This document shows positions 9,574-62,854 of a DNA stretch of 64,000 bases, in pieces. A program made the translations under genes and the position numbers. How positions within the stretch are numbered: the first letter of the stretch is position 1; every line of letters begins with the position of its first letter. The stretch is from an uncultured delta proteobacterium (GTDB lineage Bacteria > Desulfobacterota > RBG-13-43-22): NCBI GenBank assembly GCA_963743305.1, contig CAVUPH010000034.1, forward strand, positions 1-64,000. The letters are read 5' to 3'. The notes under the pieces are model-generated. The model had not been told where the DNA came from, did no database searches, and worked only from the letters and a program-made list of their open reading frames with translations.

Positions 9574-12500
9574 TTACGCCTTCTTCCCGGCCTTGGGGGC
9601 CGGTTGTTTGGCTAACTTGGTTACATTGGCCATGAAAGCCTTGGATTCGGGGATCATGGTATTGGGATCGCCCACCGTCGGGGTCAGCAGGTTGGCGCTG
9701 TCCCCGCCGTTCTTGGGGTGAAGCCAGCCAAAATGGTAGGGGAGCCCGATCTGATGGATGGTCTGTCCCGCCACTTGAAAAGGTTTCAAACGGTTGGTAA
9801 CGATGGCTACGGCCTCCACCTGTCCGCGTTGGGTCGAAACCATCACCCGTTCCCCGTTGTTGATGCTCTTCAGTTTGCCCAGTTCGAGGCTCATCTCCAC
9901 AAACAACTGTGGTTCGGCTTCGATCAGCCAGGGGAGCCAGCGGCTCAACACCCCGGTCTGCCAGTGTTCGGTCACCCGATAGGTACTGCAGACAAAGGGA
10001 TACCTGGGATCACAGGAGGCAAACTTGTCCAGGCCCTCTTTAAAAAGTTTAATCGCCGGGTTGATCATCTGGCCGGACATGGGGTTCTTCTCGATAGGGC
10101 ATTCCAGGGGCTCGTAGTGTTCCGGGAAGGGCCCGTCCTTCAGGCCCGGACCGAAAAGCGCAAGGAGCCCGTCGGGTTTCATGATAAAGGGATAGACACC
10201 CTTATCGCCCATGGGCGGGGCCGGGCCGTCGGGTATATCGCCGACCCACTTCTTTCCTTCGGCATCCCATTTCAGCAAGGCCCGTTTGGGGTTTCGAGGA
10301 TTTCCTTCCAGATCCACCGACGCCCGGTTGTAAATGATCCGGCGGTTGACCGGCCAGGCCCAGGACCACTCGGGGTAAAGGCCCAAGCCGGTGGGGTCGG
10401 TCTTCTTCCTTCGGGCGGCCATGTTCCCGGCCTCGGTGTAGCTGGCGCAGTAAACCCAGTTGCCCGAAGAGGTCCGGCCGTCATCGAGGAGGAAGACAAA
10501 GCTGGGGACCAGGGTCCCTTTCTTGTAGGCCTTCTTGTCCACCGGATGTTCCGGCACGTCTTCCAGGAAATAGCCGTTGATCTCCTTGGCCACTTGGTGG
10601 ATATCAAAGTGGCCGTTGGTTTCATAGTCCCATTTAAGGTTCGCAATAGGATCGGCCAGGGCCCCCTTATCCTTCGCATACAGGGCCCGGACCTTTTTGA
10701 AGAGTTCATACATGATGTCGCCGTCGGGCTTGGCTTCCCCGGGGGGATTGGCCGCCTTGTAACGCCATTGCATCAAACGGCCGCTGTTGCTGATACTGCC
10801 TTCTTTTTCCATGGAGGCGGCGCAGGGCAACTGAAAGACCTCGGTCTTGATCTTTTTGGGATTCATCCCCGGGCCTTTCCAGAATGACCCGGTTTCGCTG
10901 TCAAAGACGTTGACGTTGATCATCCAGTCCAGCTTGGCCATGGCCTGACGTACCTTTCCGGCGTGGGCCCCGGAACAGGCCGGATTCATCCCCCAGGCCA
11001 GGAAACCGGTAAAGGCCCCTTTATACATTTCGTCGAACAGGTTCAACCAGGAAGCGTCCTGGGTAGGTTCCAGCTTGGGCAGCCAGCCGTAACCAAAGTC
11101 GTTCTCTTTGGTGGCTTTGTCCCCATACATGGTCTTTAAGTAACTGGCCACATACTTGGGCCGGTTCTTCCACCAGTTGACGCTCCGGGGGTCTTTGGAG
11201 CTCGGGGTGGTCTTGTTATAGTCGGCCAGCGTGGCCCACTGGGCCCGGGCATTGGGCAGATAGCCGGGCAGGAGATGAAACAAAAGGGCCTGGTCGGTGG
11301 AACCCTGAACATTGGATTCTCCGCGCAGGGCGTTGACCCCGCCGCCGGCGATCCCCATGTTCCCCAGGAGGCCCTGGATCATGCACATGGCCCGGATATT
11401 CTGCACCCCCACGGTATGTTGAGTCCAGCCCATGGCATACAGTTCGGTGCCGGCCTTGTCCGGGGCCCCGGTGGACCCGTAGGCCTGATAGACCTTCAGC
11501 AGATCCTCCTTCGGAGTGCCGGTAATCTCGGACACCTTGTCCAGAGTGTAGCGGTCGTAGTGTTTCTTCAGAAGCTGAAAAACGCAGCGGTCGCCGGCCA
11601 GTGTCGGGTCCTGTTTGGGTATCCCGGCCTCGTCCTTTTCCAGGACCCAGGTAGAGGCGTCATAGGACCGCTTCTGAGGATCATAGCCGGAAAAAAGGCC
11701 GTCATTAAAGTTGTATTTCGGGTTAACCAAAAACCCGGCATTGGTGTAGTTCTTGACATAGAAATCATCGTACAGCTTATTGTCGAGGATGTACTTGATC
11801 ATGCCCCCCAGGAAAGCGATATCCGTCCCGGAACGAAGGCGGACGAAGATATCCGCTTTGGTGGAGGTACGGGTATAGCGGGGGTCCACATGGATGAAGA
11901 CGGCCCCTTTATCCTGGGCGGCCTGAATCCATTTGAAGGAAACCGGATGATTTTCAGCCACATTGCCGCCCATGTTCAGGATGACGTCGGCATTGCGAAA
12001 ATCAATGTAATGGTTGGTCATGGCGCCGCGTCCGAACGACTCTCCCAGAGCCGCTACCGTAGCGCTGTGTCAGATACGGGCCTGGTGCTCGATATAGACC
12101 AGCCCCAGTGCCCGGAGCATCTTGGCATACAGCCAACATTCCTCATTGTCCATGGCCGCGCTGCCCACCGAGGCGATGCCGTTGGTCCGGTTGACCACCT
12201 GGCCGGCGGCGTTCTTCTCCACAAAGCTGGCGTCGCGGCTTTTTTTGATATTGGCCGCCATCTTGTCCAGGGCCCATTCCCAGGAGACTTCCTTCCATTT
12301 GTCGGCGTAAGGGGCGCGGTAGCGGACCTTCTTGAGACGATTTTCATTGACCGCGATCTGGTAGGAGGAAGCCCCCTTGGCGCAAAGGGCGCCTTCGCTA
12401 ATGGGGTGCTCGGGATCCCCTTCCAGGTTGATGATCTTGCCCTGGCTGTCGGTATGCACGATCATCCCGCAGCCGACCGAACAGTAGCAGCAAACGGTGG

Positions 12501-39274: not shown

Positions 39275-41538
39275 CTACCGAAGCCCTGACCTCCCTTTTT
39301 CATTTGATATTCGATGTTGGGCGTTCGATGTTCGATGTTCATCTTCTTCAGTGACCCTCCCCTGGCTTAGCCTTTCCCGCAGGGCGGTGTGGCGTTCCTG
39401 GGTCTTGTTGTTACGGATGCCCATGGCCAGGGCCTTCTTGGTGCCGATGAGGACGATTAAGCGTTTGGCCCGGGTAACGGCGGTGTAGATCAGGTTCCGC
39501 TGCAGCAGAATATAATGCTGGGTCATCACCGGTAGGACGACGGCCGGATATTCACTCCCCTGGGATTTGTGAACGGAGATGGCATAGGCCAGGGTTAGTT
39601 CGTCCAGGTCGCTGAAATCATAGGTCACGAACTGGCCTTCAAAATTTACCACGATTTCCTGCTGCTCCTGATCGATCTTGGAGATCCTCCCCAGGTCCCC
39701 GTTAAAGACTTCCCGGTCGTAGTTATTGCGCACCTGCATCACCTTGTCGCCCACCTTATAAAAACGGGGACCCCGCTGCAGTCCGGTCGTTCCGGGATTC
39801 AAGCCCTCCTGCAGTAAGTGATTCAAATTTTCCGCGCCCACAGCCCCCTTGTACATGGGCGTCAGCACCTGAATCTCTCCAAAGGGATCCAGGGCATAAC
39901 GATCCGGAATTTTTTTTCCCACCAGTTCCAGGATCCAGCGGGCCGCCTTTTCCGGGTCCTCCTGGTGAATAAAATAGAATTCTTGATCTTTTTCCCGCCT
40001 TTCCGCCGGAATCAGCGGCAGCTCTCCCTGGTGGATGCGATGGGCATTGGAGACGATCAGACTGCCTTCGGCCTGGCGGAAAATATGGTCCAATTCCACC
40101 ACCGGGATCCGACTGGGATTCGATCAAATCGGCCAGGACCTGACCCGGGCCGACCGAGGGCAACTGGTAAACGTCTCCCACCAGGATCAGCACCGCCTGA
40201 TCTGGTACGGCCTTGAACAGGTGATACATCAGGACCGTATCGATCATCGAGGCTTCATCGACGATGATCAGCTCCGCTTCCAGGGGATGGCTTCTGTCTC
40301 TGGTAAAGCGTTTTTGGCGGGGGCTGTAGCCCAGGGTGCGATGGATGGTGGCGGCCGGGTAGTCTGTAACCTCGGAGAGCCTTTTGGCCGCCCGTCCGGT
40401 GGGGGCCATCAAAATGCTTTTCAGCTCCGATCGCCGGTAGGCCTCCAGGATCGATCGCACCAGAGTGGTTTTCCCGGTTCCCGGCCCTCCGGTGATGATC
40501 AGCAGTTTTTGGGTCAGGGCTTTTTCGAAGGCCTCCTGCTGCCGGCCGGCCAGGTGGAGGCCGAGCGATTGCTCCACCCCCGCCGACTGTCGGATCCGAC
40601 CGCCCGGCAGAGGAAGTTTCTGAGACAAAAACTCGTCGATTCGCCGGGCCAGGCCCTCCTCACAATGACTCAAATAGGGCAAGAAAATGAGCGAGGGCCC
40701 TTCCGGATCCGGCCTTATTTGGAGTTCCTGTCGCTTCAGCAAGATCTTTTAGCGCCCGGTCAACCCGATCCGCTTCGACTTTCAGCAGTTCGGCGGCCTG
40801 TCGAACCAGGTCCTTCTCGGGATAGCCGGTATGGCCTTCTTCCGCCTTCTGCTGTAACAGATAGGCTATCCCGGCTTCCACTCTTTGCGGAGCCTCCCTG
40901 GCCATCCCCAGTTTCTCCGCCAGTCGGTCGGCAGTAATGAATCCGACCCCGAAGAGGTCTCCGGCCAGATCAAAGGGATTTTCCTGGATCCGGGTGATGG
41001 CCTCTCTTCCATAATGTTTGAATATCTTGGAAGCCAGTCCGGTGGTAATCCCATGTCCCTGCAAAAAGATCATGATCTGGCGGACGTCTTTTTGCGCTTC
41101 CCAGGACTTTTTAAGCTGGGTAACCCTTTTGGGCCCAATCCCCCCCACCAGGGACAATTGTCCGGGGTTTTTATCGAGAATCTCCAGGGTCTTGAGACCA
41201 AAGCGCGCGACGATCCGTTTAGCCATCTCCGGTCCAATCCCTTTGATCAAACCGGAACCCAGATACTTCTCAATACCAATCTCCGTGGCCGGGGCCAGAG
41301 ATTCATAGCTTTCCACCCGCACCTGCAGTCCGTACTTGGGGTGGCGTTCATAGACCCCCTGAATTTTTAATCGTTCCCCCAGACCGACGGACATCAGATT
41401 GCCGATTACGGTGACCAGTTCCCGCTGGCCTTTCAACTTCAGCTTGGCAATGGTGAAGTGGCTTTCCTGGTCATTGTAGGTGATCCGTTCCACGTGACCT
41501 TCGAGACTGACGCTGTTTTTTTCGGAGGGCTGGGGCAT
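39275..41538 (-). pseudogene. recD2: RecD2 ATP-dependent helicase, two apparent frameshifts
   Basis: YLGSGLIKGIG, GGPGTGKTT, IVDEASM, GDVYQLPSVG and AYAISVHKSQGSEY spread over three ORFs; breaks near 40742 and 40115. Confidence 0.9.
39302..39342. repeat. TTCGATG heptamer tandem repeats (also 41548-41587, 60337-60412, ~37424)
   Basis: TTCGATG/TTGGGCG/TTGGACG units visible at gene ends. Confidence 0.8.
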
Positions 41539-41624
41539 GATTCCAGATTCGATGTTCGCTGTCGGACGTTCGATGTTCGATGTTCAATTTTTTAGAGTTG
41601 TGTTTCGATTCACTCTACCCAACC

Positions 41625-55850: not shown

Positions 55851-56690
55851 TCAGATGAGCAGCGACGTGACCACATAGTCAGACACCAGGATGAGCACGC
55901 AGGAGATCACCACGGACGAGGTGGTGGAGAGCCCGACGGCCTTGGCGCCATGGCTGTCCGCGCGCATGTGGGTAAAATACCCCTGGTAACAACAGACCGT
56001 GGAGACGATAACGGCAAAAACAATCGACTTGATCAATCCGTCAGTGATATCTTTCAGGTCCATACTGGTCTGAACACGATAAACATAGGTGCTGGCATTG
56101 GCACCCAGGAGCAATACGCCGGAGACGTACCCGCCGATAATGCCGACGAGGTCGAACACGGCGGTGAGCAAGGGGAAGCTGATGATCGCGGCGGTAATCC
56201 GGGGGGTGATGAGATACCGGAGCGGATCAATACGCATGGTGCTCAGGGCGTCAATCTGTTCGGAGATGCGCTGAATGCCGATCTCGGCGGTGATAGCCGA
56301 ACCGGCCCGGGCGGCAATCATAATCGCCGTGAGCACCGGTCCCAATTCCCGAACCAGCGTCAGGGCCACCAGGGTGCCGAGGGCCCCCTGGGCGCCGAAT
56401 TTTACCAGGGCATGATAGGATTGAAGGCCCAGCACCATACCGGTGAAGAAACTGACGAGCATGATGATCATCGTGGATCTGGCCCCGATATAATAGACCT
56501 GCTGCACGATCTTATCCAACTGTTTGGATCGTACGATCCTCAGCAGCGCCATAAGGAGAAAAATGGCTGAGGCGCCTAAATGGTCGATCCAACTGATCGC
56601 CACCCGACCGATAAGGGCAAAGGGACCGGTCAATAGCCTGCCGCGCTGCCCCCCAGGTTTGCTTTGCTGACTGTCAGCATCAATGGTCAT
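55851..56690 (-). CDS. mlaE: MlaE permease
   Basis: GMVLGLQ, RELGPVLTA, GSAITAEIG and EQIDAL motifs. Confidence 0.95.
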   Translation of the reverse strand: MTIDADSQQSKPGGQRGRLLTGPFALIGRVAISWIDHLGASAIFLLMALLRIVRSKQLDKIVQQVYYIGARSTMIIMLVSFFTGMVLGLQSYHALVKFGAQGALGTLVALTLVRELGPVLTAIMIAARAGSAITAEIGIQRISEQIDALSTMRIDPLRYLITPRITAAIISFPLLTAVFDLVGIIGGYVSGVLLLGANASTYVYRVQTSMDLKDITDGLIKSIVFAVIVSTVCCYQGYFTHMRADSHGAKAVGLSTTSSVVISCVLILVSDYVVTSLLI

Positions 56691-56866
56691 GCCAGAACTC
56701 CCGAGACTGGTTCCCTAGGGCGAATTAGGATTAGATTCTTACATCCCTTTCACTCGGTGGACAATTTTTAATAGGCATTATATGCTTAACTCCCCGGACC
56801 TTGTCAATGAAAATGAGTTGCCGCTCTTGGTCGGGGGGCAGGATTCTTGGGCTCAAGTCAGTAGAG

Positions 56867-56895
56867 TTGACGCCGAAAGGATTCCTTCTTATACT
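56867..56895 (+). promoter_or_regulatory. Sigma70-like promoter of the metallopterin-desulfurase/egtD unit
   Basis: TTGACG-17 nt-TATACT. Confidence 0.65.
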
Positions 56896-56929
56896 ATTAC
56901 GAAAATCCGCTTTTTTTGAATCCTGCTAA

Positions 56930-59900
56930 ATGAAACTTGATAGTAAGAAAGCCATTTGCGGTATCTGCTCGGCCGGGTGCTGGGTAATGGTTCATTATGA
57001 TACCGAGGGGAAAATCGACTCGGTGGGACCTGATGAAGGTTCTCCCTGGGGGAAGATCTGCCGCTTGGGCGAACTGGCCCGGGAGGTCGTCTATTCGCCC
57101 AACCGACTATTATATCCCTTGCGCCGCAAAGGTCCCAAGGGCACTTTTGATTTCGAGCGTATCTCCTGGGATGAAGCCTATGCGACGATCGTCGATAAAC
57201 TGCGAACGATCAAGGCGGAGTCCGGGCCGGAAGCCACGGCCATCTATACCGGAAGCGGAAGTTTCGAGTTATCCCTCTGCGATATTTTCCAGCCGGCCGG
57301 GGTGGCGGTTTCTTCGGCTTCTAGCGTCCTCTTCCCCTTCGGGTCGCCCAACACCTTGGGCGTAGGGGCCCTCTGCTATGTATCCTTCGCCATGATCGCC
57401 CCTCATGTCACCATGGGGGGGATGTTCATCAACATGTTCTCGGATATCGAGCGGGCCAACCTCATCGTCATCTGGGGGAAAAACCCGGCAGCCCACTGCC
57501 CGCCCGATGATTTTATCCAGATCGAACGGGCCCACCGGCGCGGCGCCCGCCTGGTGGTGATCGATCCCCGTCGGACGGCCATGGCCAAGTACCCGAATGC
57601 CGAATGGGTCCCCATTCGCCCCGGTACCGACGGCGCCCTGGCCCTGGGAATGTGCCAGGTGCTGATCGAGGAAGAGCTTTTCGAAGAAGCTTTCGTTAAA
57701 GAGTGGACGATCGGATTCGAGGCCTTTGCCCGATATGTCCAGCACTTTCGACCGGAGGTGGTGGAACATATCACCGGGGTGCCGGCGGCTACCGTTATCC
57801 GCTTGGCCCGGGAGCTCGCCGGGACCAACGGCGTGTCTCCGGTCATGTACAGCGGCCTGGAATACAGCGACGGCTCCGTGCAGGCCATCCGCGCCACCCT
57901 GGTGCTCTGGGCTCTGGCCGGCCAACTGGATGTACCCGGCGGACGCTGTTTCCTGCCGGCCCGGAGCAAGTTTCCCATCAACCGGGAAGGGCTGATCCCC
58001 AATCCGGACATTCGCAAGGCCGCCGGATACAATAACTTCCCGATCTATACCCTCTACCGCGGTGAGTTCCATGCCAACATCCTGCCCCGGGCGGTACTGG
58101 AGCAGGACCCCTACCCTATCCGCCTGCTGATCAGCCTGGGGGCCTCGATTATCAGTTCCTGGCCCCAGTCCGCGGTCTGGCGGAAAACACTGGGGGCCCT
58201 GGACTTTTTGGTCTGCATCGACCGACAATTAACCGCCGATGCTGCCTTCGCCGATATTGTCCTCCCGGCCGCCACCTACTACGAGATCGAATCCTATATG
58301 GTCTATGGACCCCTTTTCCGAATCCGGGAACGGGTCATTGAACCGCTGGGGGAGGCCCGAAACGACTTCTTTATCCTTTCCGAACTCGCCCGCCGCCTCG
58401 GCTACGGCCACCTCTATCCCCAAAACGAAGCGGAACTTCTGGCCCGAGTCTTGAAAGGCTCGGGCTTCACCCCGGAATCCGTCCGGGCCGCCGGCGGAAT
58501 GGTTCAGGTGCCCACGGTAATGATGGAGTACAAGAAATGGGAAAAAGGGCTGCTGCGCCCGGATGGCCGACCCGGGTTCGACACCCCTTCCGGCAAGTTC
58601 GAAATCGCCTCTTCGCTGCTGGAAGAACATGGCTACGACGCCTTGCCCGTCTATACCGAACCCGGCGAGGGACCGCTGGCCCGGCCGGACTTGGCCCGGA
58701 GTTTTCCCCTGGTCTTCAATTCCGGAGCTCGTTCCAATATTGATTTGCACGGACTACACCAGAGCCTGCCCTCCCTCTCGCGGGAACAACCCGTGCCCAC
58801 GGTGATGATGAACCCCCGGGATGCCGCCGCGCGCGGAATTCAAAACGGAGATCCGGTGAAGCTAGCCACTTTACGGGGATCCATCCCCCTCTATGCTCAG
58901 GTCACCGAGGATATCGTGTCCGGGGCCGTTGAGGTCAGCGGGATGGGGGGCGGGGCCCTTGGCCCGAAAGCCTGGCGCGACGCCTGCGTGAACGACTTGA
59001 CCGATTTGCAGCGCTATGATCCGATCTCCGGTTTTCCGGTGTACAAGGCCCTGCTCTGCGAGGTAGTGAAGAATATCGAGGGCGAAACCGTGACGGTCGG
59101 CGGCCCGGGGGAATACACACCCGATGGATCCCTGGAAACTCCGGCGGTTCCCCACCGCATTTACCTGGACCACAACGCCACCACTCCCCTGGATCCGGAA
59201 GTACAGAAGACCTTGATCGCCTTTTTGGAGTGCTACGGGAACCCGTCCAGCCTCTATGCGGCCGGCAAAGAATCCCGGACCGCCATGGAAACGGCGCGCC
59301 GCGCCATCGCCCTGCTGCTCAACTGCACGGCCCGGCGAGTCCTCTTCACCGGCGGCGGTTCGGAGGCCAACAACCTGGCCATCAAGGGAACGGCCTGGGC
59401 CGCCGGCCGGGCCAAGGACCATATCATCACCTCGGCCAGCGAACATCCCTCGGTGCTCGAACCCTGCCGTGGACTGGAACGGCGAGGTTTCCGGGTCACC
59501 TATCTTCCGTCCGACCGGGAAGGCCGGGTCCGACCGGAGGACCTCCGCCAGGCCCTGGACGATCGTACCTGCCTGGTGAGCGTCATGCTGGCTAACAATG
59601 AGACCGGTGTCCTCCAGCCGGTGGAGGAACTGTCCGCCCTGTCCCGGGAGCGGGGGGCGCTCTTCCATTGCGATGCCGTCCAAGCGGTGGGCAAAATCCC
59701 GGTGGACGTGGGGGCACTGGGGGTGGATCTCCTAACCCTCTCGGCCCACAAGTTGCACGGTCCTAAAGGGATGGGGGCGATCTTCGTCCGCCAGGGAGTC
59801 GTCCTCGATCCCTTGGTCAGCGGCGGGCACCAGGAGCAGGGCCTGCGGGCCGGCACGGAAAACGTTCTGGGCATCGCCGGCTTCGGCAAGGCCGCCGAAC

Positions 59901-60307
59901 TGGCCCTGAAACATCTCTCGGATTTGGTATCCATCCGGGAAAAGCGGGATCAACTGGAACGCGGAATCCGGAAAATCCTCCCCCAAGCGTGCATCAATGG
60001 CCATCCTCATCTGCGGCTGCCGAACACCTTGAACGTCACTTTGCCGGGCTTCCGGGGCGAATCGCTGGTCCTGGCCCTCGATCAACGGGGAGTGGCCGTT
60101 TCCTCAGGATCGGCCTGTCGCGCCGGGAACCCGGAACCCTCCCATGTCTTGTTGGCCCTGGGGCTTTCCGAGGAGGAAGCCCACTGCTCCCTGCGTTTTT
60201 CCCTGGGCCGCGAAAATACCCTGGAGGACATTGTCCGAACCCTCTCGATTTTAGAGGATATCATCCGTAATCAACAAGCGGTAGTTCGTTTTGTATCCTG
60301 CAGGTGA
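56930..60307 (+). CDS. Mo/W-bisPGD oxidoreductase (acetylene hydratase-like) fused to IscS/NifS cysteine desulfurase; putative metallopterin-dependent ergothioneine synthase (MES)
   Basis: CGICSAGC..C Fe-S motif, RISWDEA, IRPGTDGAL and ADIVLPA; then IYLDHNATTP, SAHKLHGPKG (PLP Lys) and SSGSAC (catalytic Cys), all in one uninterrupted ORF. Confidence 0.88.
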   Translation: MKLDSKKAICGICSAGCWVMVHYDTEGKIDSVGPDEGSPWGKICRLGELAREVVYSPNRLLYPLRRKGPKGTFDFERISWDEAYATIVDKLRTIKAESGPEATAIYTGSGSFELSLCDIFQPAGVAVSSASSVLFPFGSPNTLGVGALCYVSFAMIAPHVTMGGMFINMFSDIERANLIVIWGKNPAAHCPPDDFIQIERAHRRGARLVVIDPRRTAMAKYPNAEWVPIRPGTDGALALGMCQVLIEEELFEEAFVKEWTIGFEAFARYVQHFRPEVVEHITGVPAATVIRLARELAGTNGVSPVMYSGLEYSDGSVQAIRATLVLWALAGQLDVPGGRCFLPARSKFPINREGLIPNPDIRKAAGYNNFPIYTLYRGEFHANILPRAVLEQDPYPIRLLISLGASIISSWPQSAVWRKTLGALDFLVCIDRQLTADAAFADIVLPAATYYEIESYMVYGPLFRIRERVIEPLGEARNDFFILSELARRLGYGHLYPQNEAELLARVLKGSGFTPESVRAAGGMVQVPTVMMEYKKWEKGLLRPDGRPGFDTPSGKFEIASSLLEEHGYDALPVYTEPGEGPLARPDLARSFPLVFNSGARSNIDLHGLHQSLPSLSREQPVPTVMMNPRDAAARGIQNGDPVKLATLRGSIPLYAQVTEDIVSGAVEVSGMGGGALGPKAWRDACVNDLTDLQRYDPISGFPVYKALLCEVVKNIEGETVTVGGPGEYTPDGSLETPAVPHRIYLDHNATTPLDPEVQKTLIAFLECYGNPSSLYAAGKESRTAMETARRAIALLLNCTARRVLFTGGGSEANNLAIKGTAWAAGRAKDHIITSASEHPSVLEPCRGLERRGFRVTYLPSDREGRVRPEDLRQALDDRTCLVSVMLANNETGVLQPVEELSALSRERGALFHCDAVQAVGKIPVDVGALGVDLLTLSAHKLHGPKGMGAIFVRQGVVLDPLVSGGHQEQGLRAGTENVLGIAGFGKAAELALKHLSDLVSIREKRDQLERGIRKILPQACINGHPHLRLPNTLNVTLPGFRGESLVLALDQRGVAVSSGSACRAGNPEPSHVLLALGLSEEEAHCSLRFSLGRENTLEDIVRTLSILEDIIRNQQAVVRFVSCR

Positions 60308-60436
60308 GGGGAGCTTTATTTAGAAAAATAAGACTGAACATCGAACATCGAACGTTCGAATTGAGGTTTATTTATTCGAGGTTGGGCGTTCGATGTTCCA
60401 TGTTGGACGTTCATTTTATTCGAAAAAGGGGGTTGT

Positions 60437-61453
60437 ATGCCGGTCCAGGACAGGATACTCCGATTAACGGAGAAAGAGGTCTCCGCGGGCAACGGAGCCT
60501 TTGAACGGGATGTCCTCGAGGGGCTGAGCCGGGCGCCCAAATCCCTTCCCAGTAGGTATTTTTATGATGATGAAGGGAGCCGGCTTTTTAAACAGATCAC
60601 GGAATTGCCAGAGTATTATCTCACCCGATGTGAGTCTGAAATTCTCCAAACCTATCGCTCGAAATTGGCGTCCCTGCTCGCCGGCGTTCGTTTCAACCTG
60701 GTGGAGCTGGGGGCCGGGGACGGCAGGAAAACCAAATTATTGTTGGAACATTTTCTCGGCGCGGGGCTGGACTTTCGTTACGTTCCCATCGATATCTGCG
60801 AATCAGCGGTCAACGATTTGATTGGAAATCTCAAACAGCACTGGGCCCATCTTCCCAGCGAAGGACTGGCGGCGGAATATTTCGAAGGGTTGCGCTGGCT
60901 TTCCGAACGGAAGGAACAGCGCAGCCTGGTGCTGTTTCTGGGATCTAATATCGGCAATTTCAGCCAGGACGAAATGCGGGTCTTTCTCCGGAACCTCCGG
61001 GAGGCCCTGAATGAAGGGGACCTGCTCTTAATGGGTTTTGATTTAATCAAATCCGTTCCGCTGCTCGAGAAGGCCTACAATGACTCCCGGGGAATCACGG
61101 CCCAATTCAACCTGAACCTGCTGCGGCGGATCAATCGGGATCTCGGGGGTAATTTCCGGCCCGAGGGCTTTCGATTTTTCAGCCATTTCGACCGCTTCTC
61201 GGGGGCTATCGAGAGTTACCTGATCAGTGAACGAAGGCAGGCCGTGGAGGTGGAACGGCTTAATCGCGCTTTCCATTTTGAAGACGGGGAAGCAATTCAT
61301 ACTGAACGTTCTCAAAAGTTTCTGGAATCCGAGGTCGTGCGGCTGGCGCAGGAAACGGGATTCACCGTGGTTCGGCAGATGAAAGATCCGCAGGGATATT
61401 TTTTGGATTCCCTCTGGCAGGCGGGGGAGCGAAAGAAAGAAGAGGGAAGATAG
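60437..61453 (+). CDS. egtD: Histidine N-alpha-trimethyltransferase (EgtD/EanA family)
   Basis: PSRYFYD..GS.LF..IT.LPEYYLTR.E, ELGAGDG.KT, FLGSNIGN, AYND..GIT and IHTE.S.K motifs. Confidence 0.93.
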   Translation: MPVQDRILRLTEKEVSAGNGAFERDVLEGLSRAPKSLPSRYFYDDEGSRLFKQITELPEYYLTRCESEILQTYRSKLASLLAGVRFNLVELGAGDGRKTKLLLEHFLGAGLDFRYVPIDICESAVNDLIGNLKQHWAHLPSEGLAAEYFEGLRWLSERKEQRSLVLFLGSNIGNFSQDEMRVFLRNLREALNEGDLLLMGFDLIKSVPLLEKAYNDSRGITAQFNLNLLRRINRDLGGNFRPEGFRFFSHFDRFSGAIESYLISERRQAVEVERLNRAFHFEDGEAIHTERSQKFLESEVVRLAQETGFTVVRQMKDPQGYFLDSLWQAGERKKEEGR

Positions 61454-61597
61454 AAGACGGAAGGTTGCGATGTGGTCTGTGGCGGAATCAGGGAAGAGAT
61501 TGGTGTGTACGAGTACGTGTATGAGTACGGAACTCAAAATGAGCCCTACTCGTACACGCTTATCCCTGTTGCAGGTTTAGCAAGGGATGAATGAGCC

Positions 61598-62854
61598 TTA
61601 ACGGGCGTATTTTTCTTTGACGTAGGCTAGGGCCTCCTCTATCGCCTGAACCGCTAGGTCCAGGTCCTCTTCGGTGTGCCGGTGACATATATAGCCATGA
61701 TGGTGCGGGTGCAAAAAGACCCGTCGGCGAATAAGCTGGGTATAAAAATCATCCCGTTTAGCCCGATAGGTTTTGGCCTCATCCCGCTTAAAGGTTATAA
61801 AAAACATGGGGGCTACACCGCTTAGCTCGGCTCCCACGTCGTAGCGGTCAAGGCATCCCTGGATTTTTTTCCAAAAGCGGGTCCCTTTTTCCCAGATCTG
61901 GTCCAGGACCCGGTCCCGTTCGAGGATTTCAATGGTTTTCAGCGCGGCCACAAACCCGTCGCTGTTAGGAAAGAAGGTGGAAGAGATGAAGAGCTTCTGG
62001 GCGGAAGCCATCATGACTTCTCTTTTCCCGGTAACCACACTAATGGCATAGCCATTGGCCATCCCTTTTCCCAGGACCACCAGGTCGGGGGCGACCCCGT
62101 AATAGGCTTGCGCCCCTCCCAGGGCCAGCCGGAATCCGGTCCGCACTTCATCAAAGACCAAAATGGCGCCATAGCGGGTGGCGATTTCCCTGACCCCTTC
62201 CAGGAACCCGGGTTCAGGCTCTTCCATCTTGGCATGCAGGGGGTGCCCGAAGGGGGTCATAATGATGGCCGCAGTCTGCTCCCCGTGCTTGGCCATCAGG
62301 TCCTCGAGTTGATCGAGACGGTTATACCGAAATTCAAAGACATCCTCATAAAACTTTTCAGGAACGCCCCCCTTCATCTCCACACACCAATCATGCCAGC
62401 CATGGTAACCGCAGCGCATCACCTTGATCCGGTTGGTAAAGGCCCGGGCAATCCGGATACTCGCCGTGGTGGCATCGGATCCGGTCTTTAAAAATATACT
62501 CATTTCCGAACAGGGGACCAATTGGCTCAGCTTTTTAGCCAGCTCATTCTGATACCGTTGGGTTAAAGTGAAGCAGAAGCCTTTGTCCCTCAACTGGCGG
62601 ATAACCGCTTCGTCCACTTCTTCTTCTCGATAACCCAAAATGATGGGCCCATACCCGCAAAGAAAATCGATATATTCATTGCCATCCACGTCGGTGACCC
62701 GACCGCCCCGGCCGCTTTCCACAAAGATGGGGTATTCTCCCTCGATAAAATCGGCGGGTTTCCGGGCGCCCAGGACTCCCCCGGGGACCAGGGACAGGGC
62801 CTCTTGATAGATCTCCTGACTTTTAGTAATATTCAGTTTTTCAGCGCTTTTCAT
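61598..62854 (-). CDS. Class III PLP aminotransferase (GSA-aminomutase-like)
   Basis: DVDGNEYID, KTGSDAT, YHGWHD, FDEVRTGFR and LGKGMANG motifs. Confidence 0.9.
   Translation of the reverse strand: MKSAEKLNITKSQEIYQEALSLVPGGVLGARKPADFIEGEYPIFVESGRGGRVTDVDGNEYIDFLCGYGPIILGYREEEVDEAVIRQLRDKGFCFTLTQRYQNELAKKLSQLVPCSEMSIFLKTGSDATTASIRIARAFTNRIKVMRCGYHGWHDWCVEMKGGVPEKFYEDVFEFRYNRLDQLEDLMAKHGEQTAAIIMTPFGHPLHAKMEEPEPGFLEGVREIATRYGAILVFDEVRTGFRLALGGAQAYYGVAPDLVVLGKGMANGYAISVVTGKREVMMASAQKLFISSTFFPNSDGFVAALKTIEILERDRVLDQIWEKGTRFWKKIQGCLDRYDVGAELSGVAPMFFITFKRDEAKTYRAKRDDFYTQLIRRRVFLHPHHHGYICHRHTEEDLDLAVQAIEEALAYVKEKYAR

Follow-up and report, generated by a model that had tools for sequence, protein, structure and literature searches.

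Could a bacterium make the antioxidant ergothioneine without oxygen from two adjacent genes, the first of which would pass for a housekeeping cysteine desulfurase? The question is raised by a locus at positions 56,867 to 61,453 of a 64,000-nucleotide stretch of DNA from an uncultured delta proteobacterium of the lineage Desulfobacterota, RBG-13-43-22 (assembly GCA_963743305.1, contig CAVUPH010000034.1, positions 1 to 64,000 of the forward strand; the whole stretch is called the window below). A preliminary description, made from the letters of the DNA, had read the locus as a gene for a metallopterin-dependent ergothioneine synthase (MES) followed by egtD, together providing a two-gene route from histidine through hercynine to ergothioneine. 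The analysis reported here supports that reading: the MES and EgtD of the window very probably constitute a pathway module that makes ergothioneine without oxygen, as indicated by the identity of the first protein to a named MES, the conservation of its key residues, its position in a clade of fused proteins and the linkage of such genes to egtD. The enzyme class has been known since 2022, with four active homologues, and the window pair is a further member of it.

A metallopterin module and a cysteine desulfurase in one polypeptide

The MES gene (56930..60307, + strand) is intact and encodes 1125 amino acids (aa) in a single open reading frame (ORF) free of stops, which places a molybdenum or tungsten (Mo/W) module and a desulfurase on a single polypeptide. 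The assignment is based on this ORF, its Pfam, NCBIfam and Protein Data Bank (PDB) matches, the comparison with the MES of Caldithrix abyssi and a tree. The N-terminal module (residues ~1-717; 56930..59080, + strand), predicted to hold a bis-molybdopterin guanine dinucleotide (bis-MGD) cofactor, matches Molybdopterin (PF00384, residues 59-488) and Molydop_binding (PF01568, residues 602-707); the C-terminal class-V cysteine desulfurase module (residues 744-1125; 59159..60307, + strand) matches Aminotran_5 (PF00266, residues 744-1101) at 7.9e-80, and PDB cysteine desulfurases at 3e-103. The fusion of a Mo/W-bisPGD (bis-pyranopterin guanine dinucleotide) domain to an IscS-type desulfurase in one frame of 1125 aa, as first described, is therefore confirmed by the Pfam domains. 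The motifs on which that description relied (the Lys of SAHK, the Cys of SGSAC, and GALC) were all located in the ORF: CGICSAGC from residue 10, GALC at 146-149, SAHK at 938-941 and SGSAC at 1059-1063.

MES was defined by Beliaeva and Seebeck (2022, PMC9516567) as an acetylene hydratase-related metallopterin module fused to a functional cysteine desulfurase. According to the main text of that paper, the C. abyssi enzyme has 1136 aa and nine singled-out residues, of which five were mutated: Cys14, Cys17, Cys21 and Cys48 hold an Fe4S4 cluster; Cys153 is the metal ligand (C153S was dead); Lys952 is the lysine binding pyridoxal phosphate (PLP; K952A was dead); Cys1074 and Cys1135 form a persulfide relay and are both essential; and Cys1097 is conserved, with a two-fold effect. 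In the comparison with the CHARACTERISED enzyme, Cys10, Cys13, Cys17, Cys44 and Cys149 of the window protein correspond to the numbers of the paper at a constant offset of -4, and Lys941, Cys1063, Cys1086 and Cys1124 correspond to C. abyssi residues 952, 1074, 1097 and 1135 at a constant offset of -11, Cys1124 being the penultimate residue of the 1125. Four proteins of 1136 aa bear all nine residues at the numbering of PMC9516567. The reference protein used here, P0393 (HGY55909.1 / UniRef100_A0A7V4WV16; Caldithrix abyssi, with the UniRef name 'Metallopterin-dependent ergothioneine synthase'), is a member of the cluster of one 1136-aa protein; BLASTP aligned it with the window MES from end to end, with 732/1127 identities (65%) and 7 gap positions, and a 38-residue stretch around the metal-ligand Cys is identical in the two. 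The match to the C. abyssi architecture that had been proposed at the outset thus holds, both in overall identity and in all nine residues named in the paper.

Conservation of the family and position in the tree

The alignment comprised 269 proteins. Besides the window protein and P0393, these were the intact proteins from the loci that reach 1100 aa or more and the database matches of 1100-1200 aa; four loci with frameshifts and rows outside these lengths were omitted. The nine positions of PMC9516567 align exactly. Cys44, Cys149, Lys941, Cys1063 and Cys1124 are kept in 269/269 rows and Cys1086 in 265/269; Cys10, Cys13 and Cys17 are kept in 264/269, the remaining five rows having N-terminal gaps there. 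The C-terminal tail VRF-x-x-C-R/K is found in all 33 locus proteins that reach the C-terminus (37 were extracted, 4 of them cut by frameshifts). The broken frames lie in contigs of metagenome-assembled genomes (MAGs; loci L036, L038, L039 and L072) and are either assembly frameshifts or real decay. At 50% identity, the clustered library contained a single full-length MES (P0123, 65% identical), so the fused family is tight.

The preliminary description had staked its proposal on the N-terminal domain belonging to the MES clade. In a tree of 46 N-modules, obtained by a quick search, the window module lies within a clade of 17 fused MES rows (support 97 in the Shimodaira-Hasegawa-like approximate likelihood ratio test, SH-aLRT), and it shares a subclade of 7 rows with P0393 (SH-aLRT 97). 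Four unfused paralogues of ~700 aa from the same genome (31-35% identical) fall far outside the fused-MES clade.

Unfused relatives of both modules were also observed. The library clustered at 50% identity contains N-module-like proteins (P0125 and P0126, 735 aa, 50-53% identical) and desulfurases (P0138 and P0140, 385-395 aa, 56-59% identical) aligning right up to the MES C-terminus, which suggests that split forms of MES may exist. Rhabdochromatium marinum DSM 5261 encodes a homologue of the MES N-module that stands alone, has 728 aa and is 65% identical (L048:3959-6145); neither a desulfurase nor egtD lies within 4 kb, and an NMT1-type ABC transporter adjoins it (L048, L111:1474-3734). The genome has an EgtB-like gene beside EgtD on another contig, and the query used for the MES desulfurase module returned no match there. 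This unfused module is odd, because sulfur transfer in MES was found in PMC9516567 to be necessarily intramolecular.

EgtD and its linkage to MES

The gene 3' of the fusion (60437..61453, + strand) encodes a 338-aa protein assigned as EgtD, the L-histidine N-alpha-methyltransferase, in agreement with the EgtD-family gene first noted there: it matches PF10017 at 2e-102 and, with 319.9 bits, exceeds the cut-off of 290.9 of the egtD equivalog model TIGR03438. It also matches mycobacterial EgtD in the PDB (9e-53). Aligned to M. tuberculosis EgtD (7scf), it keeps Y39, F47, Y56, N166, A205, Y206, T213, E282 and S284, so that it shares 9/10 of the histidine-site residues that PMC8593015 names. Y39, Y56, N166, A205, Y206 and E282 are invariant among 17 MES-linked EgtDs.

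A survey of how often the fusion co-occurs with egtD, already suggested in the preliminary description, was made with one genome per species and gave 80 loci. An MES-type N-module was matched in 47 of these, and the other 33 are plain desulfurases. Within 4 kb, tblastn (E < 1e-10) found EgtD at 20/47 MES-type loci versus 0/33 plain desulfurase loci. Many of the 27 MES-type loci without a nearby EgtD end at contig edges, and five examined that have full flanks and no nearby egtD all come from genomes carrying PF10017 elsewhere (5/5). The host class comprises only 21 genomes, all of one family (MES threshold E <= 1e-250, full or partial): MES is present in 6 of them, and in all six an EgtD match lies directly downstream on the same strand, while an EgtD-family match occurs in 2 of the 15 genomes lacking MES. 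These counts are purely descriptive because the genomes are kin. Within the class, MES and egtD are inherited together, as one unit with a patchy distribution. The two MES-free genomes with an EgtD match are one of the same genus (G008), with a lone 185-aa EgtD fragment (158 bits), and one of the same class (G023), with a full EgtD and MES absent at the threshold used; either pattern could be due to decay or to a gap in the assembly.

These results bear on a different explanation, in which the fusion would sulfurize another heterocycle or mature the molybdenum cofactor, hercynine being the end product or fed elsewhere, and no ergothioneine would be formed. Sulfurization of other heterocycles by Mo enzymes yet to be characterised is suggested as a possibility in the main text of PMC9516567, and relatives of the N-module exist in unfused form, at 41-53% identity in general and at 65% in R. 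marinum, where the gene is distant from egtD. We regard this explanation as very unlikely given the 65% identity to a named MES with all singled-out residues kept, the membership of the full-length family in one 50%-identity cluster, and the tight egtD linkage in the host class; moreover, each of four MES homologues, drawn from different lineages, produced ergothioneine when expressed in E. coli (PMC9516567, Table 1).

Other ergothioneine genes and the lifestyle of the host

The host genome (4.9 Mb in 43 contigs, 90% complete, 5.7% contamination) contains one MES and one EgtD. It also encodes a separate stand-alone IscS/NifS, 45% identical to the fused desulfurase, so that the latter is not the sole desulfurase of the genome. 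The EgtB model (TIGR03440) matches nothing in the genome at this 90% completeness. Rhodanese-domain matches number 14, none of them on the contig of the window, and the six whose proteins were scanned against NCBIfam included none named EanB, as judged by architecture and names and without an EanB-specific profile. The statement that neither EgtB nor EanB is encoded nearby is upheld by these searches.

The description of the host as an anaerobe is, by comparison, not established. Distant homologues of cbb3-type oxidase subunits I and II, scoring below curated cut-offs, are located at a contig end (G000:C30:125114-126364 and the downstream ORF; L110:1039-3398), and a search of the host genome for dsrA returned no match above the cut-off. 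The host class is known from MAGs only, from soil and wetland (21 genomes). The stretch is contained in nine DNA sequencing runs (shares of at most 0.26) and in no RNA sequencing run.

The proposed route

The relay scheme put forward here is modelled on the mechanism proposed for the C. abyssi MES, which is backed in PMC9516567 by mutants and isotope exchange. EgtD would use S-adenosylmethionine (SAM) to trimethylate L-histidine at its alpha-amino group, giving hercynine (trimethylhistidine, TMH). The PLP desulfurase, through Lys941, would take sulfur from free L-cysteine and form a persulfide on Cys1063; within the same polypeptide, the sulfur would pass from Cys1063 to the penultimate Cys1124, and from there to the Mo or W of the bis-MGD cofactor held by Cys149, beside the Fe4S4 cluster on Cys10, Cys13, Cys17 and Cys44. 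Attack of TMH on the metal sulfido ligand would then yield ergothioneine, with the sulfur at C2 of the imidazole. What this work establishes directly is the architecture, the conserved residues, the place in the fused clade, the linkage of the genes and the lack of an EgtB match; the cofactors, the catalytic activity, the passage of sulfur along the relay and the transcription of both genes as one unit are predicted by analogy with the literature.

The same chemistry could in principle run mainly backwards, with the enzyme removing or exchanging sulfur from imported ergothioneine in salvage or catabolism, since sulfur exchange between ergothioneine and TMH is reported as reversible at the metallopterin site in the main text of PMC9516567. 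Set against this are the intact desulfurase module with all relay cysteines present, the adjacent EgtD, which would supply TMH, and the lack of ergothioneine catabolic or import genes among the immediate neighbours (mla operon, aminotransferase and saccharopine dehydrogenase-like gene); we consider a mainly reverse function extremely improbable.

Several points weigh against the biosynthetic reading. The MES and EgtD assignments of the window proteins are sequence-based predictions. P0393 is a MAG record whose sameness with the published construct is unconfirmed, the main text of PMC9516567 giving no accession. The absence of EgtB and EanB is left unproven by a genome that is 90% complete and 5.7% contaminated. 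The cbb3-like oxidase homologues of the host sit uneasily with the statement, in the main text of PMC9516567, that MES homologues occur exclusively in anaerobes. The hairpin between the two genes (see below), with its T-run, could attenuate read-through into egtD. Finally, the pocket of the window EgtD differs from that of the mycobacterial enzyme at two positions, Thr163->Asn171 and Met252->Ser260. Met252 is, we assume, important for specificity; among the 17 MES-linked EgtDs, column 163 is T, S or N and column 252 is M, I, V or S.

Selenium in the host genome

The preliminary description had also noted that the genome uses selenocysteine, which the present data corroborate. Several molybdopterin matches in the genome carry one in-frame TGA; among them is the molybdopterin-enzyme match at 11728-12498 of the window (- strand; open frame of 1024 aa), consistent with a selenocysteine formate dehydrogenase. 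SelD is present: the gene at G000:C26:75850-76774 matches as two pieces that overlap, one of which contains an in-frame TGA, and it may be a selenocysteine-containing SelD, possibly one affected by a frameshift or an error of assembly. Six rhodanese genes have an in-frame TGA at or beside the position of the active-site Cys, two of the six with two TGAs (in genome G000, C7:112284-112529, C16:98067-98342, C15:7768-8052, C37:59165-59446, C14:445001-445312 and C6:223784-224068). The C6 protein, with TGA read as selenocysteine (U), scored above the cut-off of the rhodanese-related selenoprotein model NF041203; the best match of the C14 protein was TsoB (NF045694, a selenoprotein), below its cut-off. 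Other scanned rhodanese proteins have cytochrome-c-motif or cyclic-nucleotide-binding-type (CRP-like) regions, and the minus-strand C15 and C37 genes were left out of the NCBIfam scan.

On this basis it had been speculated that the desulfurase module might also feed selenium into selenoneine. In such a scheme the module would occasionally accept selenocysteine or another selenium donor in this selenoprotein-rich organism, and the metallopterin would move selenium to hercynine; if true, this would be an oxygen-independent and SenA-independent route to selenoneine. The selenium use of the genome (SelD, TGA-containing formate dehydrogenase-type genes, several rhodanese selenoproteins) is in line with the idea, as is the fact that NifS/IscS-type desulfurases cleave selenocysteine in vitro, and nothing beyond that genomic context was found to support it. 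Free selenocysteine is scarce in bacteria; no sequence feature of the protein points to selenium, the relay positions being Cys codons (Cys149, Cys1063 and Cys1124 in 269/269 rows); and the selenocysteine lyase model SclA reached 89.7 bits against a cut-off of 525. The string 'selen' has 0 occurrences in the main text of PMC9516567, the MES passages of review PMC10903977 draw no link to selenoneine, and our literature search found no paper claiming one. We therefore give selenoneine formation next to no credence, and retain ergothioneine as the predicted product.

Layout of the locus, promoter match and intergenic hairpin

An mlaFEDCA-type operon lies 5' of MES on the opposite strand; 3' of egtD, and converging with it, are a class-III aminotransferase gene (glutamate-1-semialdehyde aminomutase type) and then a saccharopine dehydrogenase-like gene. 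MES and egtD, separated by a gap of 129 nucleotides (nt), are consequently an isolated pair on the + strand.

The fusion had been credited with its own promoter. A sigma-70-like match (TTGACG-17 nt-TATACT; 56867..56895, + strand) is indeed present 35 nt 5' of the MES start codon, with 10/12 consensus positions, and both hexamers are identical in the relative L030, whose MES is 96% identical. The scan gave 4 such sites versus 2.2 +/- 1.5 in shuffles, so the putative promoter at 56867 is a weakly supported consensus match: the match itself stands, and with a count near the shuffle expectation it is no demonstration of a promoter.

The MES-egtD gap contains a 68-nt hairpin (60337..60404, + strand; -37.8 kcal/mol, z -3.1), with a terminator-like 3' arm followed by TTTTATT. 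It is a copy of a palindromic repeat with GAACATCGAAC-type arms that has dozens of blastn-short matches on many contigs; further copies lie in the window at 39308-39341 and 41566-41586, and a longer one occupies the orthologous spot in L030. The repeat looks like a repetitive extragenic palindromic (REP)-like element. Within 56500-61700 there was no Rfam match at E <= 1, and no molybdenum cofactor (Moco) or SAM riboswitch was detected. A role of the hairpin as a specific, dedicated regulator was rejected, as it is a dispersed genomic repeat.

MES has a GC content of 0.617, which ranks in the top 1.15% of the genome's 3.4-kb windows, against 0.538 for egtD and a genome mean of 0.546. So high a value may point to horizontal transfer of MES; other molybdopterin genes of the host genome are likewise GC-rich (0.57-0.68). 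The closest MES proteins outside the genus (70-73% identical: L032, L034 and L035) are accompanied by EgtDs of just 36-40% identity, and the closest EgtDs (53-54%: L060 and L072) by MES proteins of 57-60%. MES and egtD may have had separate histories, although GC-rich Mo enzymes occur elsewhere in the genome.

Annotation and significance

That automated annotation would label the fusion as iscS had been foreseen, and the names and models agree. Among the 25 NCBIfam models shown for the window MES, the only one above its own cut-off is NF002806 (IscS subfamily; 310.5 versus 304 bits), and no MES-named model is included in these 25 best. Among the matches listed, the names given to relatives by their sources are 'IscS subfamily cysteine desulfurase', 'cysteine desulfurase NifS' or 'aminotransferase class V-fold PLP-dependent enzyme'. 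These matches comprise more than 240 clusters of relatives at 90% identity: hundreds of MES genes are hidden under the housekeeping label IscS/NifS. The practical value of the window MES is thus one of annotation. It extends the range of MES to a class of soil and wetland bacteria that is poorly sampled and known only from MAGs, and adds to the evidence for a role of ergothioneine under low-oxygen conditions.

Comparison with known systems

The best solved relative of the MES N-module is the tungsten enzyme acetylene hydratase of Syntrophotalea (Pelobacter) acetylenica (2e7z, E 2.3e-70), and PDB searches with the window MES turned up no solved MES structure. The four Fe4S4 cysteines and the metal-ligand Cys of the hydratase align with those of the window protein; at GALC, the region whose alignment had been recommended, Cys149 falls on the ligand Cys of 2e7z. 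The hydratase differs in having no desulfurase module and in carrying, after the second cluster Cys, an Asp that we take to be its catalytic residue; the window protein has Ser14 there, and 264/269 MES rows have S, P or A. By its desulfurase fusion and its Ser14 the window protein departs from acetylene hydratase, a stand-alone enzyme of ~730 aa with the Asp. The resemblance is a distant one: for the C. abyssi MES, the identity to acetylene hydratase is given as 27% in the main text of PMC9516567.

The C-module aligns over its full length with IscS/NifS desulfurases (3e-103), including the PLP Lys and the persulfide-loop Cys; unlike them, the window desulfurase is preceded by a Mo/W module of 720 aa and carries the family-specific tail VRF-x-x-C-R/K at its C-terminus. 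The rhodanese-type, anaerobic EanB and the O2-dependent sulfoxide synthase EgtB share with MES the sulfurization of TMH at C2, but have unrelated folds. The EgtDs of Mycobacterium smegmatis and M. tuberculosis (4pim, 4uy5, 7scf) resemble the window EgtD as TIGR03438 equivalogs with 9/10 histidine-site residues in common; they differ in the residues at 163 (Thr, Asn in the window) and 252 (Met, Ser in the window), and in having EgtB as partner in place of MES.

The closest counterpart is the MES of C. abyssi. It belongs to a different host lineage and, after the second Fe4S4 Cys, P0393 has Pro where the window protein has Ser; the two enzymes are alike in their two-module architecture, near-equal length (1125 versus 1136 aa), nine key residues and linkage to egtD.

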